From the NCBI GenBank assembly GCA_964543385.1, contig CAZIYE010000001.1, forward strand, positions 150,001 through 182,000: a stretch of 32,000 nucleotides of DNA, written 5' to 3'. Made by a program: the position numbers and the translations under genes. Position 1 is the first letter of the stretch. Each line of letters starts with the position of its first letter. Source of the DNA: an uncultured Candidatus Saccharibacteria bacterium. GTDB taxonomy: Bacteria; Patescibacteriota; UBA1384; XYA2-FULL-43-10; 1-14-0-10-43-13. The notes beneath the pieces were generated by a model. That model saw only the letters and a program-made list of their open reading frames with translations. It searched no databases and had not been told where the DNA came from. Below are positions 3,564 to 22,240 of this stretch, in pieces.

Positions 3564-6407
3564 TTAGACTCTGCTGAGCGTTGTAAATGGCATGTTAATT
3601 AAATCTGTGCGAGTTGGGGTCATGGTACTACCTCCGCTGGTTAGATTAGTCAATGTAAATACCCCTGGATCAGTAGCGGTTGGAGGTGATGAAGTACTTG
3701 GTACAAAACTATCTATTCTGCAGAAAGCACCAAGCATGGGTATGAATATTATAGGATTACCAGCTGCAGCTGATCCCAAAAGATCAACTTTAGACGTTTT
3801 CTCGGCCAATTTTGGACCCGAGACGCCACCAGCCAAAACCTCATTAAATCTATAATTATTAGTACCGTAATTATAGTATACCTCTGCCTCAAACACGGGA
3901 TTATCTCCCTCAAGCTTTACGCTAGAAACATGGCAAGTTAGAGTAGTTCCAGTAGGCGCATTCTTTAGATCGGGACTTAATACTAGAGGCAAATCAGTTC
4001 TACCACCGACAGCAGATGGGAGCCTAAAAACCAACTTACCGCCAGAGTTTACTAATGTCCCGCCAGCAAAATCAAGCCCCTCAAAAGCCGTTTTAAGGCC
4101 GTCCAAATCAACGGCCGGTGTCTCAGGAGTTGTCGTTGCGGTCCCTCTCCCTTCCTTCAATACTTTGATTGGATTAGGAGTATTTAATAATCCATCAGGC
4201 GTAACGAGATCTCTGAATCGAACCCTTGGGTGAGTTACTGTACCACCGCCAGCAAGGATTGCATCTTCAGCAGGAGTATTTCTAAATGATAGGAATTCAT
4301 TTGGAGCCGGACCAACTTCGATAATATCAAATCTGCCATCTGTCCTTCGTCCAGGAGTAGCAGCGGGATACGCCCTCGCTGCAGCAGCAAGAAAAGCCGG
4401 GGTAAATTCTACTCTACCGCCTCGTAATCTCTGACGGCTTAGCTCTGTGTTGGTCTCTCTTTGCTCTCTTCTTTCTCTTTCTCTTTCTCTAGCGGTAGCT
4501 AAAGCTTCAGGTGTATTATAGGCGAGAACAGCAATTGCTGGATTTAGTTCAGTCTGATTATTATTTGAAATCTGTTGCAGAGTAATATTTGGATGAGGAT
4601 CACGTCCAGCCGTTCTTTCTGTTCTATCCCAATCATTGTCCTCAAATCTCAATCTACCGTCTGCTTCAATACCGCTAATATCATATTGTCTTGACCCTCG
4701 AGCAGCAGGTACTAATCCTGCTATTGCAGCTGGTGCGGTTGCCAAAATTGTAACTCTGTTGCCAATAAGCCGTGATCGAAGACTTTCCTGTCTTGTCCTA
4801 AGCTGTTCTCTGTCAAAGCCTGTGACTTCTTTACGACTCTCGTCAACAGCACCTCTCATAACCTTGCTAACATCGCTATCAATGTTTCTCTGAGCGTTTG
4901 TCCTACCACGCCACCAGAGTGCACCCACACCAGCACCAGCTAGTGCAATCGGTCCGCTGAACTTATCAATCAATGCCATAGCGGCGTTTGGAGAACCATT
5001 GAATTCTATCAATTGTTCAGCAACCGATGGATGAGACAAAATAAAGTGTTGGATTTCTGGAGGAAGCGCGATGAAAGCATCTTTGTGTTCTACTAAATAA
5101 TTTCCGAATTCTTCACCGTTTGGAAGAGTCACGCTCATATCTATATTATGTGCATTAGCAAACTGTTCAAGATTTTGCGCTGGATCAGCACCCTGCAAAA
5201 TACTATCGACTTGAGTTATTTCACCTGTATGCAATCCCATAATAGATGCATGTTCTCCTTGATCAGCAAGACCCTGCAATTTTGACAAGTGATCAACAAG
5301 TGCTCTATTACTTTCTGACAACGAATCGTAGCTGACATCACCAGACATAACCTGATTATAAGTGTCCAGATTAGCTGCATGGTCTGCATTTTCTCCAGCG
5401 ATTTGAGCAGATTGCGAAAGAGCATCAGCCTTTGCCTGAAGCAAAGCATCTGGACTAGCCGCAGCTTGAGCACCTCCGCCAAAATGATCTTTGATCCAAT
5501 CAGCAGCTCCCTGCAGCCCGCCGTGATTGAACATCCAGCCGAGCACACCACCGATAGTACTACCAAGTGCAAAGCCTTTTATTGTAGAAATCATTACCTT
5601 ATTGCGATTTAAATCCCGTACAGTTTCATAAGACTTGCGGTATTTTTCACCCGCTGCTCTCGAAACCAGATTGAAATCATCATTGCTCTCACCCATCATT
5701 TGGTCGATAGCGGCCAAAGCTGGATTCATTGTCTCACCAGCATCTCTGGCTTCATTTCTTCTCTGTCCTAAAAGCTGTTTTATCTGTCGATATTTAAGTA
5801 CCATTTCAAAACGTGTAGCATCATTTCCGCGGACTCTATTATCCATAATAGCATTGCGCATAATACCTAGAGCCGTCATCAAGTGGCCACTGTCTAATCT
5901 GCTAAGCTCAGGATTTGAAGCACGTAATATTCCAAGCTCTGACATCCATACTGCAGCACCCTCTGTTTGTTCTTTTGCTCTTGTGTAACCGCTAATTGCG
6001 CCCATGCCACCACCGATAAGTATATCTGTGACTGGTCCGCCTAAACCAAGGGAACCATTTACTACTGATCGGACAGCCATACCAGCACCAGCCATGCCCA
6101 AAGTCCTGCCTATACCGCTCTCTCTAAAACGATTCCATATGCCACGAAAAAATCCTCCGATTCCTCTACGATCTCGAAGTATTTGGTGAAAAAGTTGTGA
6201 ATCAGCGTCATCGCTCTCAAGGATCTGTCGACAAGCATCTGGATTGCGTTCTATTTCAGCAAGTGATCTAGAATACTCTCGTTCGCTTGCAGCTCTCTCT
6301 CTGGCAAAGCCAGCTGAGGAATCAAAATCATCACCGTCGACAACGTGCTGTGCTTCCTCATTTACATCCGCCCGATACTCTGCCCTTGGCCCTGGTCCGA
6401 TAGCCAT
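3564..6407 (-). CDS. Large hypothetical protein (947 aa from the preferred start) with Gly-rich hydrophobic segments and a beta-rich C-terminal half
   Basis: The track ORF is 3564..6440. The ATG at 6407 has GGAGGG 4 nt upstream (plus-strand ccctcc at 6412-6417), so I prefer it. Gly-rich putative TM segments include GMAGAGMAVRSVVNGSLGLGG, GFALGSTIGGVLGW and PIALAGAGVGALWW. There is also an RERERERREQRE stretch. No family recognised. Confidence 0.65.
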   Translation of the reverse strand: MAIGPGPRAEYRADVNEEAQHVVDGDDFDSSAGFARERAASEREYSRSLAEIERNPDACRQILESDDADSQLFHQILRDRRGIGGFFRGIWNRFRESGIGRTLGMAGAGMAVRSVVNGSLGLGGPVTDILIGGGMGAISGYTRAKEQTEGAAVWMSELGILRASNPELSRLDSGHLMTALGIMRNAIMDNRVRGNDATRFEMVLKYRQIKQLLGQRRNEARDAGETMNPALAAIDQMMGESNDDFNLVSRAAGEKYRKSYETVRDLNRNKVMISTIKGFALGSTIGGVLGWMFNHGGLQGAADWIKDHFGGGAQAAASPDALLQAKADALSQSAQIAGENADHAANLDTYNQVMSGDVSYDSLSESNRALVDHLSKLQGLADQGEHASIMGLHTGEITQVDSILQGADPAQNLEQFANAHNIDMSVTLPNGEEFGNYLVEHKDAFIALPPEIQHFILSHPSVAEQLIEFNGSPNAAMALIDKFSGPIALAGAGVGALWWRGRTNAQRNIDSDVSKVMRGAVDESRKEVTGFDREQLRTRQESLRSRLIGNRVTILATAPAAIAGLVPAARGSRQYDISGIEADGRLRFEDNDWDRTERTAGRDPHPNITLQQISNNNQTELNPAIAVLAYNTPEALATARERERERREQRETNTELSRQRLRGGRVEFTPAFLAAAARAYPAATPGRRTDGRFDIIEVGPAPNEFLSFRNTPAEDAILAGGGTVTHPRVRFRDLVTPDGLLNTPNPIKVLKEGRGTATTTPETPAVDLDGLKTAFEGLDFAGGTLVNSGGKLVFRLPSAVGGRTDLPLVLSPDLKNAPTGTTLTCHVSSVKLEGDNPVFEAEVYYNYGTNNYRFNEVLAGGVSGPKLAEKTSKVDLLGSAAAGNPIIFIPMLGAFCRIDSFVPSTSSPPTATDPGVFTLTNLTSGGSTMTPTRTDLINMPFTTLSRV

Positions 6408-6469
6408 AGTACCCTCCGAAATAGTACTAAATTTATACAAAAAATTTTGGTCTAAAACCTGTTATTTAG

Positions 6470-6520: not shown

Positions 6521-6560
6521 TTTATAAATAAAAAACAAAAAACTCTCCGAAAGGAGAGTT
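6521..6560 (-). terminator. Intrinsic terminator (AACTCTCC-TTTC-GGAGAGTT plus a U-tract)
   Basis: An 8-bp stem at 6541-6548/6553-6560 is followed on the minus strand by TTTTGTTTTTTATTT. Confidence 0.75.
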
Positions 6561-6583
6561 AAAAAGGCCCATAAAAACACTGA

Positions 6584-6610
6584 AACCCCACCGCGCGATG
6601 CGATGGGGTT
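6584..6610 (-). terminator. GC-rich 11-bp hairpin just downstream of the island-1 gene
   Basis: The minus strand reads AACCCCAUCGC-AUCGC-GCGGUGGGGUU (one G-U pair), followed by TCAGTGTTTTTATG. It sits in tandem with the terminator at 6521-6560. Confidence 0.55.
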
Positions 6611-6652
6611 CAGGAACATTTGCCTCAGGATGAGGCGGGAGGATGCTGCCCC

Positions 6653-7363
6653 TTACGGGGTAGTATCCTCCCAGGAATTCTTCACCTCCCAGCGGACGCC
6701 GGCATGGCGTCCACGAGCGTTGAAGGTCCTCTTCTCGCCGGGCTGGCGGGCGGGACGCGTGTCCCACTCGCCGAACAAGTTGCCCACCAGGGCGGCCACG
6801 TTGGTCCGCAGAACCAGGACCAGAACGACGGCCACGATCAACAACCACCACCAATTGGCGGCCAGCCAGTTAATTACTGCCATGGGATCTCCTGCCGGGG
6901 TTACCGGCGGCGTCGACGTAGTCGGCGCGGTCGTGCCGGGGGTGGCCGGCGGAGTAGTTGCAGGTAGGGATGCAAGCGGCGCAAGGCCGTACTTGTCTTC
7001 GAGCAAGCGAATTACCGCTCCCTCAGTGATATAGCCGCGATCTTGCAACCAAGCATCGACTTTCGCCTGACTTTCCGGCGTACCCCCAAGGGGGTTTGCT
7101 TTCAGATAGGCGATGTCAGACTGGATCTTGGTGATCTGATACTTGATGTCCCGGATCTCACTCTGGACTCGGCGGGTACCTGCACGGTCACCCTGGCATA
7201 TATATTCCCGAAGGATTACTTGCCGTTCAGCGACTTGTTGCTCTTTTGTAGCAATCTGCTGCTGAAGCTGGGGAACCGGGGTACCAGCGTCGGGCCCGAG
7301 TTGAGCGAATGCCGCTACGGTAGCGGCGAGCATGATGGCGATCAGGATGATCGTTTTCTTCAT
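6653..7363 (-). CDS. Island-1 orphan: Sec-secreted coiled-coil protein with a Pro/Thr-rich linker and a C-terminal TM anchor (236 aa)
   Basis: ATG start with GGGAGAAC upstream. Signal peptide MKKTIILIAIMLAATVAAFA followed by QLGP. Heptad-like region QQQIATKEQQVAERQ...IRDIKYQITKIQSDIAYLK. Linker PATTPPATPGTTAPTTSTPPVTPAG. TM helix WWWLLIVAVVLVLVL. Counted lines give 60-73% GC against about 35% for the backbone. Confidence 0.75.
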   Translation of the reverse strand: MKKTIILIAIMLAATVAAFAQLGPDAGTPVPQLQQQIATKEQQVAERQVILREYICQGDRAGTRRVQSEIRDIKYQITKIQSDIAYLKANPLGGTPESQAKVDAWLQDRGYITEGAVIRLLEDKYGLAPLASLPATTPPATPGTTAPTTSTPPVTPAGDPMAVINWLAANWWWLLIVAVVLVLVLRTNVAALVGNLFGEWDTRPARQPGEKRTFNARGRHAGVRWEVKNSWEDTTP

Positions 7364-7581
7364 GGTGTTCTCCCGCTGTATGGTGGCGACCCGCTCGATT
7401 GTGAATTTTTTTATTACCGAGCAAACAAGATAGAAAAGTGTAAATTCAGGCGCTCAAAAGCGCCGTTTAAGCGTAATTTCTACTCTCTTTGCTCAGTAAT
7501 ACTATTTAATTGTTAAGGTACTTTGTGCTCATATTCACCCTTTTAGGGTAAACAAAAGGCGACACTGTTCTGCATAACTCG

Positions 7582-8367: not shown

Positions 8368-9678
8368 TTAAATAGTTTTGACTGCTTGAGTTCTTCCTAG
8401 CATCAATGTCAGTTGTGCTGCTCTAGGTGAACTCTTCTCCGCAACTGGTATTGCTGTAAGCTCAGCCTGTATGACACTCTCCATCATATCTCTGGCTGCC
8501 TTGTTACTGATATTGGCATGGAGAAAGTTATTAAATTGTCCCATTTTTGTAGTGCTGATAGCCCTTGCGTCTTTACCCAGATCAGCTGATGACGTAACTT
8601 CTCTTTTATAAACCTCAGTCATCATTTTTTGCATTTCTGCATCAAATGCTGGATCGCTACCGCCCCATACATCACCCATTTCATCTAGAGTTGAAGCTGC
8701 ATCATCGGTATCGAATACCTTATCTTTAGCTTTTTTGCCCGGACCCTTGATGATGGCATCTTTTGCTATCTTTAAGAGAGTATCGCGTAGAGTATCAAAA
8801 TCCTCTAGGTTATCCAATATCTCTTTGCGGGTAACACCAATTTGTTCAGTAAGGGTAGCTTTCTCCGTTGCTTTGACAGCGATATCTTTACTAGCCTCTG
8901 CTAGTCCCTTGATCCTTTCATCTAATTTTTTCTGAGAAAGTTCATATTGCTGTTTTTCAGCAAGCTCTCCATCTGACAATCTTTGTCTACCAAAAGATCT
9001 TAGAGTATTTTTAAATCTACCCCACCCGTTGAATCTTTCTTTACCGATTTTATCTTTAGCATCAGTATAAGCTGTTTCATTACCTGTTCTTACATCTGCC
9101 CCCTTATCCGCTTGAAGCTGCCAAGCAGCAGCAGTCTCAGTAAGACCCTCTTGAGTTAATTGGTGGTCCTTCAATTTATATTTAGATTTTAATTCCTGAT
9201 CAATCTTCTTTGCATCATCAGTAAATTTATTGAAATCATCAATCAGTTTCATATATTTCTCAGCGAAGTCCGGATCAGTTGCAGCCTTTTTGCCGAGATG
9301 AGATTCTATAGCATCACTAGCCTCCTTGAGGTTATCACCTTGAATAATCTTTAGCTTGCCTACAAATTCGTCAGACAAGAATTTCTTGAATTTATCCAAG
9401 GCAGGCTTAATCTTTGTATCATAATTTTCTGCCCAACTTGCAATCTCAGTAATATTGCCAGCCCCTGCTAAATAAGCGTTCATATCCAGGCTCTTTTCTT
9501 TTTGCGCTCTTGCCTGAACATATGCAAAAAAACCAGGGTCTCCGAGCTTGGCCTCGACATTTGCCTGGTCATATAGATTTGCATTTTCAGTGGAAATATT
9601 CCCCATCTCCTGACGAACGTCAGCCTCTGGAAGACTTTGAGCGCTTGGTACATCGACACTATATTTTCCCTCTACCAT
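8368..9678 (-). CDS. Hypothetical alpha-helical protein (436 aa)
   Basis: ATG preceded by GGAGGTGAT. K/E/D/A-rich helical-looking sequence. No family recognised. Confidence 0.65.
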   Translation of the reverse strand: MVEGKYSVDVPSAQSLPEADVRQEMGNISTENANLYDQANVEAKLGDPGFFAYVQARAQKEKSLDMNAYLAGAGNITEIASWAENYDTKIKPALDKFKKFLSDEFVGKLKIIQGDNLKEASDAIESHLGKKAATDPDFAEKYMKLIDDFNKFTDDAKKIDQELKSKYKLKDHQLTQEGLTETAAAWQLQADKGADVRTGNETAYTDAKDKIGKERFNGWGRFKNTLRSFGRQRLSDGELAEKQQYELSQKKLDERIKGLAEASKDIAVKATEKATLTEQIGVTRKEILDNLEDFDTLRDTLLKIAKDAIIKGPGKKAKDKVFDTDDAASTLDEMGDVWGGSDPAFDAEMQKMMTEVYKREVTSSADLGKDARAISTTKMGQFNNFLHANISNKAARDMMESVIQAELTAIPVAEKSSPRAAQLTLMLGRTQAVKTI

Positions 9679-10895: not shown

Positions 10896-10931
10896 GTGGT
10901 CAGGTCCTCCAAAGGAGGAGGGCCTGACCAC
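10896..10931 (-). terminator. GC-rich hairpin at the 3' end of island 2, with no U-tract
   Basis: GTGGTCAGG pairs with CCTGACCAC, plus an inner CCTCC/GGAGG helix with an AAA/TTT loop. It lies 19 nt after the island-2 stop and 15 nt before the tgt ATG. Confidence 0.5.
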
Positions 10932-10950
10932 GGAAGACCGACGATGTATC

Positions 10951-11295
10951 TTATATCAGTTCACTGCTGACACAGCAGAGGTCGATGACCTCTTGTCCGA
11001 TCTGACGAATAACCGTCGCGTACTCGTCATCGCCGAAATCGGACGAGCCGATCCACTGAATCTGGGCACCGATTGCCTCAGCAATCTTAACCGCCGTGTG
11101 GAAACTGCCAATCAGCTCTTCAGTTGGTGCATTCCGACAAATCGAAGCCGGAACTGACTCCAAGCAAGCTGCCAGAACCTCAAGCGGTAGCATGCGGCTA
11201 CCCAGACTTGACGTGCTTTCGACTCCGTAGATATCGTCATGTAGACGACGACGAAGCACATAAAGCGCATCTTGAAACCCATTAATGGCATCCAT
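10951..11295 (-). CDS. Island-2 orphan: small acidic cytoplasmic protein (114 aa from the preferred ATG)
   Basis: The track ORF begins at a GTG that is part of the RBS TAGGAGGTG. The ATG at 11295 lies 8 nt after GGAGG. No signal peptide. A counted line gives about 53% GC. No family recognised. Confidence 0.6.
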   Translation of the reverse strand: MDAINGFQDALYVLRRRLHDDIYGVESTSSLGSRMLPLEVLAACLESVPASICRNAPTEELIGSFHTAVKIAEAIGAQIQWIGSSDFGDDEYATVIRQIGQEVIDLCCVSSELI

Positions 11296-11315
11296 AAGTG
11301 CCACCTCCTAACATT

Positions 11316-11344
11316 TTTATAACATTTTTAGCAAAGATTGTCCA
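11316..11344 (-). promoter_or_regulatory. Candidate promoter for the island-2 gene (TGGACA-17-TATAAA)
   Basis: On the minus strand the -35 is at 11339-11344 and the -10 at 11316-11321. It lies in the AT-rich spacer between the rplL terminator and island 2 and overlaps a tandem AACATTTTTA x2 repeat. Confidence 0.4.
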
Positions 11345-16752: not shown

Positions 16753-18294
16753 TTATTTTTTCAAGAGTGAAAGCATCTTTCTCGACTTAACATAGTAAAT
16801 CGATAACATACCTGTCAGAGTGAAAAGTAAGCTTAATAGCGGTGTACTTGGTCCAGTCATTGGCAAAGCTGGAGTGACTGCTATAGGAGTTACAACAATT
16901 TTTGTTTTAGCGATATCATTTAAAGTCTGATTATCAAACCGAAGAGTTGCAGTGTTCACTAGTATTTCTCCAGTTGCGATTCCAGATGATATTTTAACTT
17001 TAAATTTGATAATGCCGTCTTCATTTTTGCCCAAAGAACCAATTTTGATTCCATCAAAGATAGCCTTGTTACCTAAAGCGGTGCTAACACCATTTCTGAT
17101 AAGAGAAGCACTGCCATTTACAAATGAAACATTTGCAGGTAAAACATCGCTTATTGTAATGTTATCAGCTTTTTCACCAGAGTTTGCAAAGAATATCTGA
17201 TATTCCAGAACATCTCCGGGTTTAGCTTGATTTTCTTTCGAAAAGCCAGCCTCGTTTATAGTAACGTTTCGAACTGATTTCTCAATTCGCAGCGTTGGTT
17301 GACCAGGAATTATCTTGCCGATATTTACAAAAACTAAGTTTCCATAAATATTTTCCATAATACCATCGAAATGTTTTCCGTCTTGGGTATTTGTAGGCTG
17401 AGGATTCTTAACTATTACCTTAAAGGTCCTTACGTTTGTCTCTCCTGCAACAATTCTAACTGCAGGGTAGCTGATTACACCGTTTGACAAAGTACCACCG
17501 ATTGAGGCGCTAGTAAAATCTGCCAGCTCTAAGATATCGCTTATGTCATCAGTGACAGTGAAGTCAGTTGCTGCATTTCCTGTGTTCTTTGTCGTTAGAG
17601 TGTAAAGAACCTCATCACCCGGATTTGCTGAAATATTTACGCCCTCGGCGCCAGATACTAAATTCTTAGCAATCTTACTCTTTACTATATTTGGTGTAGG
17701 CATTTTGATTGTCTTGAATTGAAACAAAACATATCCAATATGTTCCCAACAACCTCTTACATCACCTATTTTTAATCCACCAGTAGTGAGAAGTTCATCG
17801 CCATTCTGGCTAAATAAAAGGTCAGACGGAGGAGTACCAAAACTTTTAAAATCTGGAAACCATTGTACTGATCCAGGAATCATAACTACATTTGCATCTG
17901 TATCTAGATTGACAGTTAAACTGTCAAAAACAGTAGAGGCGTTATCTGCGGAAATTGCAGTATTGATAACTATCTTTTTGTTACTTGACACTGAAGGCAA
18001 GCTAACTTTGACTCGAGTATCACGAGCTGTGGTATCTACTACGCCATTGTGGTAGTAAATAATTGCTGCAAAAGTATCGCCAGCAAGACCATCAACTGGT
18101 TTACGCCACGAAACTTCACCTGCAGACTTGTTTGCACCACGTATTTGTTGAAGATCATCTTTCAAGTAATTGAACCTTGGACCAGATGCATTTACAGACA
18201 AAGCCGGTGCGATTAATTGTGATAGCAATGCAGAAACAAGCGCTATTCCTAGCACTTTCTTCCACCCTCCAGTGATTTTTTGGATCAAATTCAT
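16753..18294 (-). CDS. Cell-surface protein with DUF11-type repeats and a C-terminal LPXTG-like sortase signal
   Basis: N-terminal signal/TM segment VLGIALVSALLSQLIAPALSVNA. DUF11-like blocks GDEVLYTLTTKNTGNAATDFTVTDDI and GDVLEYQIFFANSGEKADNITISDVLPANVSFV. Sorting signal LPMTG, then a hydrophobic stretch, then KSRK. Confidence 0.8.
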   Translation of the reverse strand: MNLIQKITGGWKKVLGIALVSALLSQLIAPALSVNASGPRFNYLKDDLQQIRGANKSAGEVSWRKPVDGLAGDTFAAIIYYHNGVVDTTARDTRVKVSLPSVSSNKKIVINTAISADNASTVFDSLTVNLDTDANVVMIPGSVQWFPDFKSFGTPPSDLLFSQNGDELLTTGGLKIGDVRGCWEHIGYVLFQFKTIKMPTPNIVKSKIAKNLVSGAEGVNISANPGDEVLYTLTTKNTGNAATDFTVTDDISDILELADFTSASIGGTLSNGVISYPAVRIVAGETNVRTFKVIVKNPQPTNTQDGKHFDGIMENIYGNLVFVNIGKIIPGQPTLRIEKSVRNVTINEAGFSKENQAKPGDVLEYQIFFANSGEKADNITISDVLPANVSFVNGSASLIRNGVSTALGNKAIFDGIKIGSLGKNEDGIIKFKVKISSGIATGEILVNTATLRFDNQTLNDIAKTKIVVTPIAVTPALPMTGPSTPLLSLLFTLTGMLSIYYVKSRKMLSLLKK

Positions 18295-18411
18295 TTTTTT
18301 CCTTAATCCTCTAGCTAAAAGCTATCGGCACTTTCATAATTGTTATTACTTTTTTAAATTTAACTCTCTATATATATTAATAGCCATTATGGTTAGCAAT
18401 TGCAATGGACT

Positions 18412-18510
18412 CATCTCCGAAAGTATGAATAAATCATAACTTCGGGATGAGGGGGTGCGCGCCTTTCAACAGGCACCCCGCTCAAGTTAGTTGCCACCGG
18501 GTACGGTGGC
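18412..18510 (-). terminator. Cluster of three hairpins at the 3' end of island 3
   Basis: GCCACCG-UACC-CGGUGGC lies at 18493-18510. GAG-C-GGGGUGC...GCACCCC-CUC lies at 18449-18483. An imperfect stem of about 12 bp, CATC(C)CGAAGT/ACTTTCGGAGATG, lies at 18412-18449. None has a clear U-tract. Confidence 0.45.
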
Positions 18511-18517
18511 GGGCGTC

Positions 18518-19282
18518 CTAATACGGGACGCCAGGTTCGGGAATCGGCCCCGCACCAGGCCAATGCCCACAGCTCTGGCTCGTCCCCCCACAAAACGGGC
18601 AGCGGAATAGCCATAGCAGGCCAAGCCGCCACTCCATCACCGGCTCTTTCTGCCAGAATGGCATCCGGTCCGGGGTGAGTCCCGACTTGGCGAAGCAAAG
18701 CTTTGATATGATCACTGCTTGCTGTTCGCGGGTTGGGAGCGGCTTTTGTGCAGCCACCGTTGGCTTATCGAGACTGATCGCCTCGAGGCACCATTGGTCG
18801 ACAGTGGCAGTTGCCATGACGCCGGTATACGGCAGCTTTTGAGGGCAAATAATCCGGACATACCAGTCAATACGTGTGAGTAACTGCGTAATGATCTGGT
18901 ATGCCAGGTCGACTTCTTCAAACGTCCTGCAGAGGTAGATCGGGGTGTGGATGATGTCCAGTTGGAGCATCAGCACAAGCCCATTCTTCACTGAAGGAGT
19001 CATATGTCGACCCTTCTTTGCCCAATAGCAACGGTAACGCTCGATTTCGGCGTAGTCATACGCCGTTAACGTGCGCTTTTCTGCGACCCGCTGAACGGTA
19101 ACCTTCACCCAATCGCATTGCTGCGAAGAATAGGTTTGTCCATCCGAAGTCCAGGAAGGAACAGTCGGTGCCGGCGTGGTTGCCGACTGAGTGCTTGCTT
19201 GCGGCACTCCCGCGTTATTACCCATCTCGGCCATCACCGGCAAGCCGGCAAGGACGAGAATCAGGGCCATGATCATTTTCAT
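18518..19282 (-). CDS. Island-3 orphan B: Sec-secreted Cys-containing protein (254 aa from the preferred ATG)
   Basis: The ATG at 19282 lies 7 nt after GGAGGTG, which overlaps the upstream gene's TAG stop (TAGGAGGTGTGCAGATG). Signal peptide MKMIMALILVLAGLPVMA followed by EMG. P/T-rich segment TQSATTPAPTVPSW. The track start at 19354 is a TTG inside the upstream gene. Confidence 0.7.
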   Translation of the reverse strand: MKMIMALILVLAGLPVMAEMGNNAGVPQASTQSATTPAPTVPSWTSDGQTYSSQQCDWVKVTVQRVAEKRTLTAYDYAEIERYRCYWAKKGRHMTPSVKNGLVLMLQLDIIHTPIYLCRTFEEVDLAYQIITQLLTRIDWYVRIICPQKLPYTGVMATATVDQWCLEAISLDKPTVAAQKPLPTREQQAVIISKLCFAKSGLTPDRMPFWQKEPVMEWRLGLLWLFRCPFCGGTSQSCGHWPGAGPIPEPGVPY

Positions 19283-19293
19283 CTGCACACCTC

Positions 19294-20586
19294 CTAAAGC
19301 GGCAGGACGATGACGTTTGAAACGCCAGGGCGGTAAGTGATCATCTCTGACCAATTCCGACCATCAGTTGAATATTTCAGATTATATTCATATGACACGA
19401 GGTTTCCATTCACACGCTCACCGATGGCAGCATTGTTTATAGGAATATCCCCAGGAGCATATGGACCGAAGACTCGCCCTTGCGGGTAAGCACGATCATA
19501 CAATCTAATCCACACCTTCTTTGAAGTGCGGAAGCAGTAGTTTCCATGGACCACTTCTGTTTGTTTCTGAGTGGTAACGGAAGACGATATGCCGGGTGCC
19601 GGCGCTTTGAGATACTCGATGACTTGCACCAGGGTTAACTGGTGATTGGCAACGAGTTGCCTTAAACGCTGAATCTCGGCCTCGGTTTTACCCGAGTTCC
19701 GAGCGACGACTTGAATCGCCTCCCAAACCTTCAAGTCAAAAGCTTCACAAGCAGCCACACGGGCTTCAAGATTGGCAATTTGGACAAGAAGACTGGAATC
19801 ATCGTAGGCAGGAACAGAAGTGATGCCTCCACCAGTCAGCCCAGTACCGGTACTACCCATCGCCTTGTCATTGGCAAGTAAGGTCTCGAAGACGAGCCCG
19901 TTACCACCATTGCCAGCGCGACGAAGCAGATCGGTCAAGTACTGAACTGAAGGAGCGGAACAGTTGGCAGGCCAACACTCCGTTTTGAAGCGGAGAGTGT
20001 CGACCATTGCTGACAGGTTAGTTTTTCCTGCCCACTTGATCTTGAAGAGGATCAAGTTTATAGCTTTGTCGTTGCGTTTTCCATCCTGGACCAACGCATA
20101 GAAACGGAAGCAATGCAGATCAGCACCAACAGCTACCTCAAGAGGCATCTCTAGGTACCAGCGCCCGCCAGCGTCCCGTTTGAGAACCAGCACACCCGGA
20201 GTTGTAAACGACCAGGTATTGGTCCTGCGATCATAGCTATACTCGAGCTTTTTCTCTAGCTCGCCTTGTGCAGCGACCATCGCCACCACCGGCATGTCAG
20301 CGAGGACGTTAGGGTATACCTTCATGGTTGCCCCAATCCCCACAGGAAATGTGCCGAGGTACGAGGTCTCTGCCTCGTCCCATTGCCAGGTGACTGCTTG
20401 CGCATAAGTCACCTGCACCTGGACTTTTCCACTGGTAACCTGCTGCGATGCCTGTTCAGTATAGACCGGACCGTCTAGGACGGCACCAGTTGCACCGAAT
20501 GGAGCAGCACTTGCTGGCGTGATTGCCAGCGCGCCAACCATTAAGGTCAGCAATACGAGGCCAATTACGGCCAGCGGGTTACGCAT
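19294..20586 (-). CDS. Island-3 orphan A: Sec-secreted protein with a beta-rich N-terminal part, a central coiled coil and a C-terminal beta-rich domain (430 aa)
   Basis: The ATG at 20586 is preceded by AAAGAGGAGGAACGCAG. Signal peptide MRNPLAVIGLVLLTLMVGALAITPASA followed by APFG. Heptad-like LLVQIANLEARVAACEAFDLKVWEAIQ...IQRLRQLVANHQLTLVQVIEYLK. Counted lines give 52-58% GC. Confidence 0.75.
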   Translation of the reverse strand: MRNPLAVIGLVLLTLMVGALAITPASAAPFGATGAVLDGPVYTEQASQQVTSGKVQVQVTYAQAVTWQWDEAETSYLGTFPVGIGATMKVYPNVLADMPVVAMVAAQGELEKKLEYSYDRRTNTWSFTTPGVLVLKRDAGGRWYLEMPLEVAVGADLHCFRFYALVQDGKRNDKAINLILFKIKWAGKTNLSAMVDTLRFKTECWPANCSAPSVQYLTDLLRRAGNGGNGLVFETLLANDKAMGSTGTGLTGGGITSVPAYDDSSLLVQIANLEARVAACEAFDLKVWEAIQVVARNSGKTEAEIQRLRQLVANHQLTLVQVIEYLKAPAPGISSSVTTQKQTEVVHGNYCFRTSKKVWIRLYDRAYPQGRVFGPYAPGDIPINNAAIGERVNGNLVSYEYNLKYSTDGRNWSEMITYRPGVSNVIVLPL

Positions 20587-20612
20587 CTGCGTTCCTCCTC
20601 TTTCATTTTTGG

Positions 20613-20643
20613 GGTACCTCTCGCCACCAGGCGAGGAGGTACC
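20613..20643 (-). promoter_or_regulatory. GC-rich hairpin in the 5' UTR, about 25 nt upstream of the island-3 RBS
   Basis: The minus strand reads GGUACCUCCUCGCC-UGGU-GGCGAGAGGUACC (13 bp with one bulge), followed by CCAAAAAUGAAAGAGGAGGAAC. Confidence 0.55.
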
Positions 20644-20944
20644 TGATTGCAAGAAAATTGAGACGATTGGATTGCTCCGATTTCGTCTGCAAGGAAGTAT
20701 TATTTATTCGAGATCAATTGATAGCTTTTATCTGCCTACTTCTAGCTATCACTCGAAGAATAAATTCTTCTATTGCAGCTGAAATTGCTTCTAAACATTT
20801 TCACTGATTTTTATTCTATTTGATTTTTAATTGCCATTTTTTAGCAATTCATAAATTATCTATAGTTGAAATAATTTATTTTTGTGAGATTTTATATATT
20901 TTACAATTTTTAAATATACTATTGTGACTTCAATCGCCTTTTGC

Positions 20945-21085
20945 TTTCTTAAATCCAACCAGGAAGAAGGCGAGAAGTGATAGAAGCTAACATGGCCAGG
21001 TCCACTTATTTTAAGGAACCTCTCTGCCGGTTAGCCGGAATGCCTATCACCCTAATACCCCTAAATCCCAGTCGGATTTAAGAAA
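20945..21085 (-). ncRNA. Candidate structured RNA domain closed by a perfect 12-bp helix, with a competing local helix
   Basis: TTTCTTAAATCC (20945-20956) is the exact reverse complement of GGATTTAAGAAA (21074-21085). The same GGATTTA can instead pair with TAAATCC at 21062-21068. Internal helices are GTGATAG/CTATCAC, CCGG-CUAA-CCGG and AGGU(U)CC/GGACCU. GCTAAC/GTTAGC has pseudoknot potential. Confidence 0.4.
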
Positions 21086-21221
21086 ACAAAAAAGGATCGT
21101 CAGCGATATATTTGGCACTTAAAGACCAATGATCGCCGCCCCATCCTTTTGTCCACCGCACATAGTATTCCTAAGTGTGGTAGTAATTAACCCCTTGTTA
21201 GCTTAGCGCTAACTTAACTAC
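21086..21221 (-). ncRNA. Candidate sRNA of about 137 nt, or first leader segment, running from a consensus promoter to an intrinsic terminator
   Basis: The predicted TSS is about 7 nt below the -10 at 21228. The 3' end is set by a long imperfect hairpin at 21090-21150 (helices AAAAGGAU, GCGAU and UUGG) followed by UUUUUUGUUUUCU. 5' hairpin GTTAGC-GCTAA-GCTAAC. No Rfam family recognised by eye. Confidence 0.4.
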
Positions 21222-21227
21222 TGACAA

Positions 21228-21256
21228 ATTTTAGCACCTTTGCTTGACTTTGTCAA
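21228..21256 (-). promoter_or_regulatory. Near-consensus sigma-70 promoter (TTGACA-17-TAAAAT) just downstream of the dus stop
   Basis: On the minus strand the -35 is at 21251-21256 and the -10 at 21228-21233, with an exact 17-nt spacer. It shares the extended context ATTGACAAA with promoter P2 at 7796-7801. Confidence 0.6.
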
Positions 21257-21268
21257 TAGTTTATGGCC

Positions 21269-22240
21269 TTATAATTGGTCCACGACCCGACTGACGTCTC
21301 GTAAATCAACAATAGAAACTGCCTCTTTGCGCAGTTCCTTAGCTCCAGGAAACCCTTTCAAATAAGAGAGAAGGTGTTTTCTAAACTCTACAATGCCAAG
21401 CTCTCCTTTCGTCTCAAAGGCAAGCTTGGCATGGAGAGGGATTATTGTCTTTAATTCATCTAGTTCGATCTCATCTCGAGAAAATATCCAGGGCCTACCA
21501 AAAGTAGCTTGCCCGATCGCACAACCATCTATTTGAACACCAAATTTTGAGTATTGAACATCAGAGATTGATCTGAGACTACCGTTTCCAATCACAGTAA
21601 GATTGGGCAACATTTTCTTGACCTCATAAATATTATCCCAATCAGCATTGCCTGAAAATCCCTGCTTGTATGTTCGTCCATGCACTATGAGAGCGTCAAT
21701 TCCGGCGTTCACCAAAACCGGCGCGAATTCGAGTATTTGATCTTGATTATCCCAACCAAGCCTTGTTTTCACCGAAACTGGTAAATTAGTATTATTCTTG
21801 ACAGCCGCAACTATTTCTGCCGCTAATTTTGGGTATTTCATCAAAGCCGCACCGTGATCGCTACCAACAACTTTTCTAGCAGGACAACCCATATTTATAT
21901 CAATTCCGTCTGGTTTGAGATTTTTTGTGATCCAACTAGAAGCAAAGGCAAACTTTTCCGGAAATTTGCCAAATAGTTGAATAGCAATCGGACGCTCTTT
22001 TTCAACAAACTTTAGCATTTCCAAGGTCTCATCTCTCCCCTTCTTCGATTGCCAGATTCCTGCCTCATCCTTAAACCAGTTTTTTGCATGATAGAAGATT
22101 GCATCGGCCGAAACCAACTCCGTTATTACAACGTCAGCACCAAAGCTACGACAAAGAGTACGAAAAGCAGAGTCAGTGTATCCTGCCATCGGTGCTAGAA
22201 CTTTTATTGGTCTATTTAGTTCTTTCCAAAAGTTAGCCAT
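21269..22240 (-). CDS. dus: tRNA-dihydrouridine synthase
   Basis: Contains APMAGYTDSAFRTLCRSFGADVV, IDINMGCPARKV, VKTRLGW and VHGRT blocks. Overlaps cysS by 8 nt. Confidence 0.88.
   Translation of the reverse strand: MANFWKELNRPIKVLAPMAGYTDSAFRTLCRSFGADVVITELVSADAIFYHAKNWFKDEAGIWQSKKGRDETLEMLKFVEKERPIAIQLFGKFPEKFAFASSWITKNLKPDGIDINMGCPARKVVGSDHGAALMKYPKLAAEIVAAVKNNTNLPVSVKTRLGWDNQDQILEFAPVLVNAGIDALIVHGRTYKQGFSGNADWDNIYEVKKMLPNLTVIGNGSLRSISDVQYSKFGVQIDGCAIGQATFGRPWIFSRDEIELDELKTIIPLHAKLAFETKGELGIVEFRKHLLSYLKGFPGAKELRKEAVSIVDLRDVSRVVDQL

Follow-up and report, generated by a model that had tools for sequence, protein, structure and literature searches.

One well-described block of variable envelope genes is the slpA cassette of Clostridioides difficile. 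This block is hypervariable, lies at a fixed site and has sharp borders with conserved flanks. Strains exchange such S-layer cassettes by homologous recombination, and the product has two subunits. S-layer genes can also have 5' UTRs that stabilise their mRNA. A similar organization is found for a gene pair, here called A and B, in the window, which is the whole 32,000-nucleotide stretch of DNA analysed and comes from a Saccharibacteria (TM7) genome. A two-subunit product is likewise proposed for this pair. Unlike slpA, which encodes one cleaved precursor, A and B are two coupled genes. Their products have no CWB2 or SLH domain and no sequence or fold homology to the clostridial proteins.

Among the fibrillar coiled-coil proteins on the surface of Gram-positive bacteria, the streptococcal M and M-like proteins and pneumococcal PspA are a second point of comparison. 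Like A and B, they have a signal peptide and a coiled-coil stalk that varies in length, along with an exposed part that is hypervariable and a Pro-rich wall-associated segment (here in B), and their alleles diversify rapidly. In contrast to these proteins, the pair has no LPXTG or choline-binding anchor and no homology to them. The conserved domain of A is N-terminal and beta-rich, and a second, coupled subunit is required.

The CLIPPER/DUF11 adhesins (PF01345), in which CLIPPER is an intramolecular isopeptide-bond domain (PMC12617251), are encoded at the same locus as the pair. The two have beta-sandwich domains and a predicted cell-surface compartment in common, but A and B are unmatched by PF01345, DUF7927 and DUF7619. 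Fibres such as BppU, reovirus sigma-1, fibritin and P22 gp26 share with A the order of beta domain, coiled-coil shaft and beta head. Phage receptor-binding fibres are among the weak matches of A, with non-significant E-values and TM scores of at most 0.15. Unlike the phage genes, gene A occurs in no viral contig and has a core-genome locus.

The RNA upstream of the pair invites comparison with 6S RNA, in which a rod of about 180 nt opens into a large central bubble, and with structured leaders of highly expressed envelope genes. Like them, it is a rod (about 150–170 nt) that is closed by a long stem, has an asymmetric region conserved at its centre and is preceded by a strong sigma-70-type promoter. 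In contrast to 6S RNA, its predicted loops are smaller than the 6S bubble, it has no terminator, and it always stands directly before a cassette encoding a secreted pair.

Genomic Context

The slot that holds the pair has the order dus, RNA, A, B, LPXTG-anchored CLIPPER/DUF11 adhesin, prfB (Table 1). An initial annotation of the window had proposed that the pair be searched for in metagenomes, and more than 16 contigs, which stem from independent samples and assemblers, have the same slot with a coupled secreted pair. In every locus with downstream sequence, a secreted pair directly follows the RNA. This includes L019, where an additional gene separates dus from the RNA. The only Saccharibacterium with Tn-seq data, Southlakia ML1 (Southlakia epibionticum), has a different dus neighbourhood and lacks the slot beside dus; thus its Tn-seq phenotype is not transferable.

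Table 1. Features of the A-B locus, in window coordinates and in the order of transcription.
Feature	Coordinates	Strand	Details
Sigma-70-type promoter	21228..21256	-	TTGACA-17-TGcTAAAAT (extended -10); directly after dus stop
Variable 5' hairpin region	21095..21220	-	Between promoter and rod RNA; from alignment
Rod-shaped structured RNA	20941..21089	-	About 150 nt, conserved; from covariation
AT-rich variable spacer	20791..20940	-	Missing in L002 and L005
Structured proximal 5' UTR	20646..20790	-	Helix AUUUC(A/G)GCUGCAA/UUGCAGACGAAAU enclosing hairpins
Perfect hairpin	20613..20643	-	GGUACCUCCUCGCC-UGGU-GGCGAGAGGUACC; from sequence
Gene A	19294..20586	-	430 aa, ATG at 20586, within ORF 19294..20652(-)
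Protein A parts			Signal peptide, conserved N-terminal beta-sandwich, Gly-rich hinge, 64-aa coiled coil, C-terminal beta-sandwich
A stop TAG inside B SD (AGGAGG)	19290..19296	-	From sequence
Gene B	18518..19282	-	254 aa, ATG at 19282, within ORF 18518..19354(-)
Protein B parts			Signal peptide, swappable middle domain, conserved C-terminal module LCFxKSGLTPDRMP...CGHWxGPGPIPxPxVPY
Four hairpins after B	18410..18532	-	z = -6.7
Promoter-like element	18377..18405	-	TTGCAA-17-TATTAA, before CLIPPER gene; read from sequence, kept in alignment A8
CLIPPER/DUF11 isopeptide-domain surface protein	16753..18294	-	LPXTG-anchored; DUF11/CLIPPER, DUF7927 and DUF7619 matches

The adjoining gene had already been read as an LPXTG/DUF11 surface protein, which placed the pair at a cell-surface locus, and both points hold. 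The CLIPPER protein ends in LPMTG, a hydrophobic transmembrane segment and KSRK, as expected of a sortase substrate. Four hairpins follow B, where three had been counted before. The distal two (18410–18479) are kept across loci with compensatory changes. None of the four is followed by a U-run, and intrinsic terminators were dismissed. The promoter-like element beyond them is not among the consensus-scan matches; it probably serves the downstream CLIPPER gene.

Protein A

Both reading frames of the initial annotation, trimmed to an ATG with AGGAGG upstream, exist with the lengths given there. The N-terminus of A reads MRNPLAVIGLVLLTLMVGALAITPASA and continues after the predicted cleavage site with APFG. 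By inspection, its signal peptide consists of the n-region MRN, the h-region PLAVIGLVLLTLMVGALAI and the cleavage end TPASA, before A.

An AlphaFold2 model of A has a mean pLDDT of 86.1. It is beta-rich at 42–204 and 343–427, with helices at 214–244; the Gly-rich residues 246–261 are disordered and are followed by a single helix at 264–327. The model reads as two beta-sandwiches with a 64-aa heptad coiled coil between them, in agreement with the layout of beta-rich ends, Gly-rich hinge and central coiled coil that had been read from the sequence. Within the first beta-rich part, residues 157–204 form a long, conserved beta-hairpin. The helix keeps one unbroken heptad register, with 72% hydrophobic residues at the a and d positions compared with 52% overall. 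In its length and a/d pattern, the predicted helix is what a coiled-coil fibre would have.

The proteins had been called orphans of no recognizable family. The second half of this description still applies, since A and B have no real match in Pfam, PHROGs, NCBIfam or the PDB sequences; the only items returned were OppC_N on a signal peptide and coiled-coil noise. The word orphan no longer fits. The N-terminal domain of A defines a small family with 32 cluster representatives among 1.84 billion proteins, and all members with a retrievable contig lie in the same syntenic slot. A Pfam scan of all 37 family members found no common domain and no PF01345, and a profile of the family gave only non-significant coiled-coil matches among PDB sequences. 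Foldseek, which had been proposed as a check, was run on the A model against the PDB and BFVD. It gave only weak matches to Ig-like and fimbrial/adhesin domains and phage fibre proteins, all with TM scores of at most 0.18 relative to the query.

Stalk length differs widely across the family, from 0 (P0008–10) to about 200 residues (P0018, P0020 and P0028). The C-termini of its members read GGxR or GGxK.

Protein B

The N-terminus of B reads MKMIMALILVLAGLPVMA, followed after predicted cleavage by EMG. Its signal peptide, again by inspection, is composed of MK, MIMALILVLAGL and PVMA, before E. Mature B has 236 residues, with no barrel predicted. A structure model built from 6 sequences had a pLDDT of 45 and was unusable, and a B family profile had zero matches among PDB sequences.

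B is a mosaic. For example, P0012 and P0013 have a near-identical C-terminal module of about 110 residues, while their middle domains are unalignable. A cluster of C-terminal cysteines had been noted in B; two of them (C228 and C238) are invariant, and C231 occurs only in the B of this window. The tail is Pro-rich and ends in PPVPY.

B contains an internal LPYTG at about residue 150, where homologues read PPFTGG. It is followed by about 100 more residues, without a hydrophobic segment or charged tail. A lacks LPxTG, and neither protein has the C-terminal LPXTG sorting signal of a sortase substrate. Likewise, A and B have no Omp85-type barrel, POTRA or TPS domain, and so do not belong to two-partner secretion (TpsA/TpsB).

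Export and Translational Coupling

In both signal peptides, a positive n-region leads into a hydrophobic core, with small residues at -3 and -1. Homologues keep this pattern, and the hydrophobic 19-residue windows of A and B are N-terminal only. Judged by inspection, A and B carry Sec (type I) signal peptides, as had been proposed for both.

The two genes form a translationally coupled operon, which bears out an earlier suggestion. At the junction, CTT TAG GAG GTG TGC AG ATG, the stop of A (19296–19294) lies within the SD of B (19295–19290), 11 nt upstream of the B ATG. The junction GGAGGTGnnnnATG(A) is kept in seven of the eight other loci (L002, L003, L005, L007, L010, L015 and L012), the exception being L013. 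Six of these seven have either an ATGA/GTGA overlap or an 11-nt gap. With L041 also considered, the overlap is found in L007, L010, L015, L041 and L003, the gap in L002 and L005. The junction also explains the GGxR/GGxK ends of the A family. Coupled translation suggests that A and B are made in roughly 1:1 stoichiometry.

The Leader RNA

The gap of 682 nt between dus and A had been described as a leader of about 640 nt. A leader is indeed present, and it is more than a spacer; besides a promoter, it contains a covariation-supported RNA about 150 nt long and a proximal UTR with structure of its own. The promoter matches 11 of 12 consensus positions, plus the TG, and all nine aligned loci have the same -35 and -10 elements. 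The hairpin region that follows differs in length and sequence among loci, with a hairpin present in each.

The rod RNA is closed by a helix of 24 bp and ends in an apical arm of 26 bp; the asymmetric internal-loop region between them is invariant. Evidence for this structure comes from an alignment of 16 distinct sequences. Compensatory double changes occur in 20 of the 53 pairs, and 96.5% of cells are paired compared with 37–57% when the partners are slid; the observed value was reached in none of 500 shuffles. The folding energy is also low (MFE z = -7.8). H2, a helix of just 3 bp, shows little covariation. A tally of the per-pair table counts G.U in 145 of 847 paired cells, which means that the structure exists on the gene strand only.

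The window holds one copy of the rod RNA. Scanning metagenomes with an 18-nt RNA pattern gave 25 loci, 13 of which were discarded as chance matches without the remaining RNA. No Rfam family, including any known riboswitch or cis-regulatory class, matched the leader or the 3' hairpins at the gathering threshold, E<=1 or E<=10. Several known RNAs were rejected as candidates. 6S RNA (RF00013 and relatives) gave no match at E<=10, and the predicted internal loops of the rod are at most 7 nt. SRP RNA has a domain IV hairpin capped by a GNRA tetraloop, together with conserved symmetric and asymmetric loops; the apical loop of the rod is 12 nt (UUAAAAUAAGUG), and SRP RNA was set aside on this ground and for want of an Rfam match. 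Both tmRNA and RNase P were considered and dismissed; ARAGORN found no tRNA or tmRNA. A U-run before the rod supplies the 5' strand of the closing helix and was therefore rejected as a terminator.

In the two loci that lack the spacer, the rod abuts the proximal leader, which argues that A and B are transcribed through the rod, at least there. The proximal UTR (fold z = -4.2) has a long-range helix, and the hairpins it encloses include a GCAA tetraloop. It is kept in the closer loci (the window, L002, L005, L007, L041 and L013) and not in the distant ones (L017, L019, L026 and L037). The 5' arm of the perfect hairpin that comes next contains CCUCCUC, complementary to the SD of A (GAGGAGG). Other loci keep this hairpin or have another just before the ribosome binding site. 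By its complementarity, it may have a regulatory role as an anti-SD hairpin. A conserved structured domain always precedes the cassette and, 300 nt apart from it, an anti-SD hairpin precedes the SD; a riboswitch or cis-regulatory leader would couple such a domain to an expression platform, either a terminator or sequestration of the SD.

Selection and Cassette Replacement

The ratio dN/dS is 0.13–0.18 for A and 0.11–0.29 for B, far from the value near 1 that had been named as a sign of unconserved frames. Both genes are therefore under purifying selection and are not chance ORFs.

The loci L002 and L005 provide an example of replacement. Their flanks are 92–99% identical, while identity is 52–83% from the start of A to the hairpins after B. 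Likewise, dS is 1.68 in A and 1.03 in B, compared with 0.13–0.53 in cysS, dus, CLIPPER and prfB. A drop in identity and a high dS that are confined to A-B indicate allelic replacement by recombination. The CLIPPER neighbour is not hypervariable, being 98% identical where A is 71%. The comparison shows an apparent replacement of the A-B coding cassette, and of the cassette alone, between otherwise near-identical genomes.

Divergence can go further. In L019, L026 and L037, the first gene is missed by the A profile and has no detectable homology to A. It nevertheless retains the signal peptide, the beta domain, coiled coil and second beta domain, and the GGxR end. Three distinct metagenome contigs stop 120–450 nt past the RNA motif (L022, L025, L040; L018), and such breaks fit strain heterogeneity at the cassette.

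A Proposed Explanation and Its Alternatives

The explanation proposed here, with a probability of about 0.5, is that A-B is a variable binary cassette for a cell-surface fibril or adhesin, under a constant structured leader, in a clade of environmental Saccharibacteria. In this model, A would be the fibril. Its conserved N-terminal beta-sandwich would be the base, docking onto either B or the envelope; the coiled coil would be a stalk whose length sets its reach, and the variable C-terminal beta-sandwich would be a distal head that contacts a ligand. B, with its interchangeable middle domains and Pro-rich tail, would be the wall-associated partner. The structure may make contact with the host bacterium or shield the cell, and its exposure would create pressure to diversify. 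New alleles would arrive by homologous recombination, for which the conserved leader on one side and the 3' hairpin/CLIPPER region on the other would provide homology arms. Natural competence is a trait of Saccharibacteria (PMC10633639). The pair would be expressed from the invariant promoter, by way of the rod RNA and the structured UTR, both of which may stabilise or regulate the mRNA.

Some observations count against the surface-cassette model. A and B have none of the anchors looked for (C-terminal LPXTG, SLH, CWB2, LysM or lipobox), and the rod RNA may be a gene in its own right that simply lies upstream. The raised GC3 of the cassette (0.44–0.65 compared with 0.29–0.46) is not explained by the model alone.

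Another explanation, an unlikely one, would have A and B build an S-layer-like lattice of two components, which would coat the envelope instead of acting as an adhesin. A strong invariant promoter with a long structured leader, 1:1 coupled synthesis, a fixed core-genome position and a hypervariable cassette flanked by conserved DNA would all suit a coat. The leader would then be comparable to the mRNA-stabilising 5' UTRs of S-layer genes, and the cassette to those exchanged between strains of C. difficile. However, no SLH, CWB2 or other S-layer anchoring domain or family is matched by A or B, and a stalk range of 0 to about 200 residues suits a projecting fibril better than a lattice subunit. 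Both proteins are also Cys-rich and basic, which is atypical for S-layer proteins. An adhesin with its partner and a toxin with its chaperone had both been suggested for the pair, with the caution that this was speculation. The toxin reading, in which A would act against the host bacterium or competitors and B would be its partner, chaperone or immunity protein, is quite improbable. Secreted, fast-diversifying coupled pairs are also typical of toxin/immunity polymorphism, and the long conserved hairpin of A would be compatible with it, but neither sequence nor fold reveals a toxin, enzymatic or pore-forming domain. B itself is predicted to be exported, unlike cytoplasmic immunity proteins, and A is conserved at its N-terminus with a variable stalk and head, which mismatches a layout of N-terminal delivery and C-terminal toxin. 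Since both proteins are exported, have no enzymatic or toxin domain and include a stalk of variable length, a fibrillar surface protein fits better, and the adhesin with its partner, while still conjectural, is the better half of the earlier suggestion.

It is possible, if somewhat doubtful, that the rod stands alone as a housekeeping or global regulatory RNA, for instance a 6S-like RNA that binds RNA polymerase. It would then lie upstream only by conserved synteny, with A-B under a promoter of its own. The rod is preceded by an invariant sigma-70-type promoter and is conserved in sequence far beyond the genes next to it. In size, closing stem, central invariant asymmetric loops and apical arm, it resembles the 6S layout. 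Its invariant internal loops and G.U pairs hint at a partner that acts in trans and is itself conserved, and in most loci an AT-rich spacer follows it. On the other hand, neither 6S nor any other Rfam family is matched even at E<=10, no terminator follows the rod, the spacer can be missing, and a secreted pair comes right after the RNA wherever downstream sequence is available, L019 included. A foreign origin of the whole island, as a prophage or plasmid remnant, a recent horizontal acquisition from a high-GC organism or a chimeric assembly, is largely refuted and very improbable. It could draw on the weak architectural likeness of A to phage fibre proteins and on a GC of about 0.52–0.56 in the island compared with about 0.37–0.40 in its flanks and the genome. 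This rise, which had led to the name island, is real, but it does not mark a recent import, since the same site is occupied in many related Saccharibacteria, and the GC of the cassette stays raised in all related loci. No relatives were found in IMG/VR, GenBank phages or PLSDB plasmids, the sole relative among GTDB species-representative genomes is a Saccharibacteria MAG, and no integrase or repeats were found at the edges. Mis-assembly had been named as a further concern; recurrence of the identical slot in independent assemblies argues that A-B is not one. The composition of the island is the mark of a recombining hypervariable cassette rather than of a one-off import or an assembly chimera.

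The surface-cassette model can be extended, tentatively and with rather low confidence, to a dedicated socket, bounded upstream by the conserved promoter with the rod RNA and downstream by the conserved 3' hairpins with the CLIPPER gene. Competent Saccharibacteria would swap entire surface cassettes into this socket and so change the host bacterium or phage that can attach. The rod would then represent a new regulatory class controlling the socket, possibly by binding a protein or RNA polymerase.

Significance

The leader RNA is among very few covariation-supported structured RNAs specific to the Saccharibacteria phylum and, as it is unmatched in Rfam, it is a new RNA to study. The A-B cassette is a ready marker for strain typing. 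More generally, persistent GC-rich islands in a low-GC reduced genome may be recombining cassettes and not recent foreign DNA.

Saccharibacteria are obligate epibionts and, to our knowledge, their host-recognition determinants are largely unknown beyond type IV pili. The A-B pair is a concrete candidate for a determinant of host range or immune evasion.

Genes A and B

The window is low in GC (about 0.35-0.40), and nearly every gene lies on the minus strand. Between dus and the gene for an LPXTG surface protein is a block of 0.52-0.55 GC containing two minus-strand open reading frames (ORFs), A and B. Their starts were obtained by cutting the ORFs back to ATG codons with AGGAGG just 5′. Both products begin with what appears to be a signal peptide, in which a charged n-region and a hydrophobic core precede an AxA-like cleavage site. 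In A as in B, strongly hydrophobic 19-residue windows occur only at the N-terminus, and both proteins lack an LPXTG sorting signal at the C-terminus. The stop codon of A (TAG, 19296-19294) lies inside the Shine-Dalgarno (SD) sequence of B, 11 nt 5′ of its ATG. All elements of this arrangement in the initial annotation (two ORFs, signal peptides, coupled stop and SD) are present.

In seven of eight other loci, the junction reads GGAGGTG, 3-4 nt, and ATG(A), either overlapping the A stop (ATGA or GTGA) or lying 11 nt past it. Judged by sequence, the translational coupling of A and B is ancestral. Many A-family members (P0003, P0004, P0017-P0043; junctions L007, L010, L015, L041) end in GGxR, GGxK, or GGxQ. 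These ends arise because the GGAGG SD and start codon of B (ATGA overlap) are read in the A frame, and they were rejected as a sorting motif.

Features of the A-B locus and of the A protein (positions in the window, or residues of A)
Feature	Position	Strand	Remarks
dus	21269-22240		
Invariant promoter	21256-21228	-	TTGACAaagtcaag...TGcTAnAAT; consensus score 11/12
Variable hairpin	between promoter and rod RNA		
Rod RNA	20941-21089	-	~150 nt, nearly invariant
Gene A	19294-20586	-	430 aa
Gene B	18518-19282	-	254 aa
Last two hairpins 3′ of B	18410-18479	-	conserved across loci, compensatory changes
Promoter-like TTGCAA-17-TATTAA, for CLIPPER gene	18377-18405	-	conserved
LPXTG surface-protein gene (CLIPPER/DUF11)	16753-18294		
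A, predicted signal-peptide helix	N-terminal		AlphaFold2 model
A, beta-sandwich	residues 42-204		AlphaFold2 model
A, long conserved beta-hairpin in beta-sandwich	residues 157-204		motif CxRFYAL..D.KR.D...RFxTExWP
A, two short helices			bear invariant RRAGNGGNG motif; AlphaFold2 model
A, Gly-rich hinge			predicted disordered; AlphaFold2 model
A, single 64-residue helix	residues 264-327		heptad unbroken
A, C-terminal beta-sandwich			AlphaFold2 model

A Fixed Slot in Saccharibacteria

No family was found for A or B in Pfam, PHROGs, NCBIfam, or PDB sequences, and profiles of the two families retrieved nothing from PDB sequences save coiled-coil noise. Searching 5.8 billion proteins turned up 10 close relatives for A and 5-6 for B. 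With a profile, 32 members carrying the ~240-aa N-terminal domain of A were recovered from 1.84 billion representatives. Every A-family member with a retrieved contig has an identical gene order: topA-recR-cysS-dus, a gap of ~500-700 nt, A, B, one or more CLIPPER/DUF11 proteins, prfB, ybaB, pth, and rplA. The description of the pair as orphans thus gives way to an A-domain family with a fixed slot. The lone match in GTDB species-representative genomes is a Candidatus Saccharibacteria. Mis-assembly, which had been considered, is excluded because different samples and different assemblers yielded the slot-bearing contigs.

The reading frames are conserved as well. The dN/dS ratios are 0.13-0.18 for A and 0.11-0.29 for B, far from the value near 1 that would have spoken against real genes, and indicate purifying selection on both frames.

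Southlakia ML1 is a cultured Saccharibacterium with Tn-seq data. Since its dus neighbourhood differs from that of the window, no phenotype can be transferred from it. At SEML1_0360-0361 of Southlakia epibionticum ML1, there is a ~660-nt unannotated gap 3′ of dus with no A-B-like genes after it (PMC10633639 supplement).

A Structured RNA ahead of the Cassette

The initial annotation placed A and B behind a leader of ~640 nt. By sequence comparison, nothing in the locus is more conserved than this leader. An alignment of the dus-to-A gap from nine loci resolves it into an invariant promoter, a variable hairpin, and a rod-shaped RNA supported by covariation.

The rod RNA was analysed in 16 distinct sequences, from the nine loci and from seven genuine copies found by a metagenome pattern scan. 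RNAalifold gives a rod with 53 base pairs. Its closing helix has 24 bp and its apical arm, which ends in a 12-nt loop, has 26 bp; the internal-loop region is asymmetric and invariant. Compensatory double changes occur in 20 of the 53 pairs. Paired cells make up 96.5%, compared with 37-57% when the partners are slid, and none of 500 shuffles reaches the observed covariation. The single-sequence fold has z = -7.8. G.U pairs account for 17% of paired cells (145/847, a tally of the per-pair table), so the structure exists on the gene strand only, in agreement with the promoter orientation. A U-run 5′ of the rod core was rejected as a terminator; it forms the 5′ side of the closing helix.

The rod RNA has one copy in the window. 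It was not found in IMG/VR, and comparison with Rfam gave no match at the gathering threshold, E≤1, or E≤10. The secreted pair lies directly 3′ of it in all loci with downstream sequence, including L019, a locus with an extra gene between dus and the RNA.

An AT-rich spacer follows the rod in most loci. It is missing in two, L002 and L005, which implies that A-B is transcribed through the rod, at least there. Past the spacer is a second structured block (fold z = -4.2), and a perfect hairpin (20613-20643) precedes the ribosome-binding site (RBS) of A, its 5′ arm CCUCCUC being complementary to the A SD. This proximal leader is kept in nearer relatives only, but distant loci still place a hairpin before the RBS. 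Hairpins were also annotated 3′ of B; they are present, but number four rather than three (z = -6.7). Because no U-run follows any of them, they are not canonical intrinsic terminators.

Replacement of the Cassette

An example of variation within the slot is the comparison of L002 with L005. The two are 92-99% identical over cysS, dus, the leader, the CLIPPER gene, and prfB. Identity is 52-83% from just 5′ of the A start to just past the hairpins behind B, and then 97%. The CLIPPER gene is not hypervariable, being 98% identical. The dS values are 1.68 for A and 1.03 for B, compared with 0.13-0.53 for four flanking genes. The cassette is thus older than the surrounding genome, and was acquired by recombination rather than just by fast evolution. 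The A-B cassette has been replaced by recombination.

B itself is a mosaic: in two members, P0012 and P0013, a C-terminal module of ~110 aa is almost the same and the middle domains are unrelated, one helical and one beta-type. The gene that follows the leader in L019, L026, and L037 has a signal peptide, beta domain, coiled coil, and beta domain without matching the A profile. Three distinct metagenome contigs break 120-450 nt past the leader RNA motif (L022, L025, L040; L018 from motif positions). Such ends at the cassette edge suggest strain-level heterogeneity in the sample, breaking assemblies.

GC3 is 0.44-0.57 in A and 0.50-0.65 in B, compared with 0.29-0.46 in neighbour genes. The excess may come from GC-biased gene conversion at a recombination hot spot, from alleles circulating among higher-GC relatives, or from expression-linked codon usage.

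Predicted Protein Architecture

AlphaFold2 modelling of A from 37 sequences (mean pLDDT 86) reproduces the central coiled coil, beta-rich ends, and Gly-rich hinge recognised earlier. Conservation within the family is centred on the N-terminal domain, and the C-terminal domain is variable. The helical segment is absent in P0008-P0010 and reaches ~200 residues in P0018, P0020, and P0028. This is the pattern of a putative stalk presenting a variable head. Foldseek comparison of the model with PDB and BFVD gives weak Ig-like, fimbrial/adhesin, and phage-fibre matches (TMq ≤0.18), which would fit generic beta-sandwiches and are not diagnostic.

The model of B, with pLDDT 45, is too poor to use. Conserved in B are its signal peptide, an LxFxKSGLTPDRMP...GPVMEWRxGL motif, two invariant Cys, and a Pro-rich tail, whose PPVP(Y/H) end recurs even in distant members. 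An LPYTG at residues ~150-156 (about 18815-18835) corresponds to K(P/L)P(F/Y)TGGM in homologues, where G and M do not vary. It looks like a sortase motif but was rejected as one: it is internal, lacks a membrane segment or charged tail, and is PPFTGG in homologues.

Other Genes in the Window

A second GC island (6550-7400, 0.55-0.65 GC) holds a 236-aa ORF, 6653-7363(-), with a signal-peptide-like N-terminus (MKKTIILIAIMLAATVAAFAQ), a Q/E-rich helical stretch, a Pro/Thr linker, and a hydrophobic WWWLLIVAVVLVLVL segment at the C-terminus. Its product has no Pfam or NCBIfam match and may be another variable envelope protein.

A third, lying between tgt and rplL (10900-11320, about 0.54 GC), is one self-contained ~113-aa gene with RBS AGGAGGTG and no signal peptide, ending in a 15-bp hairpin (10896-10931). 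L002 and L005 lack the entire insert, with only about 119 nt from rplL to tgt. ORFs of 958 aa (3564-6440; 0.42-0.50 GC) and 436 aa (8368-9678) have no significant Pfam match. L005 retains both the 436-aa gene and the 97-aa gene that come after tgt.

Function and Evolution

A and B are shown to be a selectively maintained pair, predicted to be exported and co-translated. They occupy a fixed slot adjoining the gene for an anchored isopeptide-domain adhesin, CLIPPER (PMC12617251), and a conserved structured RNA and promoter precede them. The favoured model, with a probability of about 0.5, is that A and B assemble into a fibril or adhesin complex at the cell surface. Exposure at the surface would create pressure to diversify, and homologous recombination via the conserved flanks would exchange A-B alleles. 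The natural competence of Saccharibacteria (PMC10633639) makes such exchange plausible.

The main alternative for the proteins, an S-layer-like coat, is unlikely. A toxin and its partner is a poorly supported reading and more improbable still. Least credible is a foreign or phage origin, also poorly supported. Against a foreign origin or recent import of the cassette, the same slot occurs in Saccharibacteria relatives, GC over A-B stays raised there, and searches of IMG/VR, GenBank phages, and PLSDB plasmids gave no relatives. For the leader, the main alternative is that the rod is an independent 6S-like RNA, a doubtful reading but the least remote of the four.

The rod, a structured RNA outside any Rfam family even at E≤10, lies within the supposed leader and has an invariant promoter of its own.
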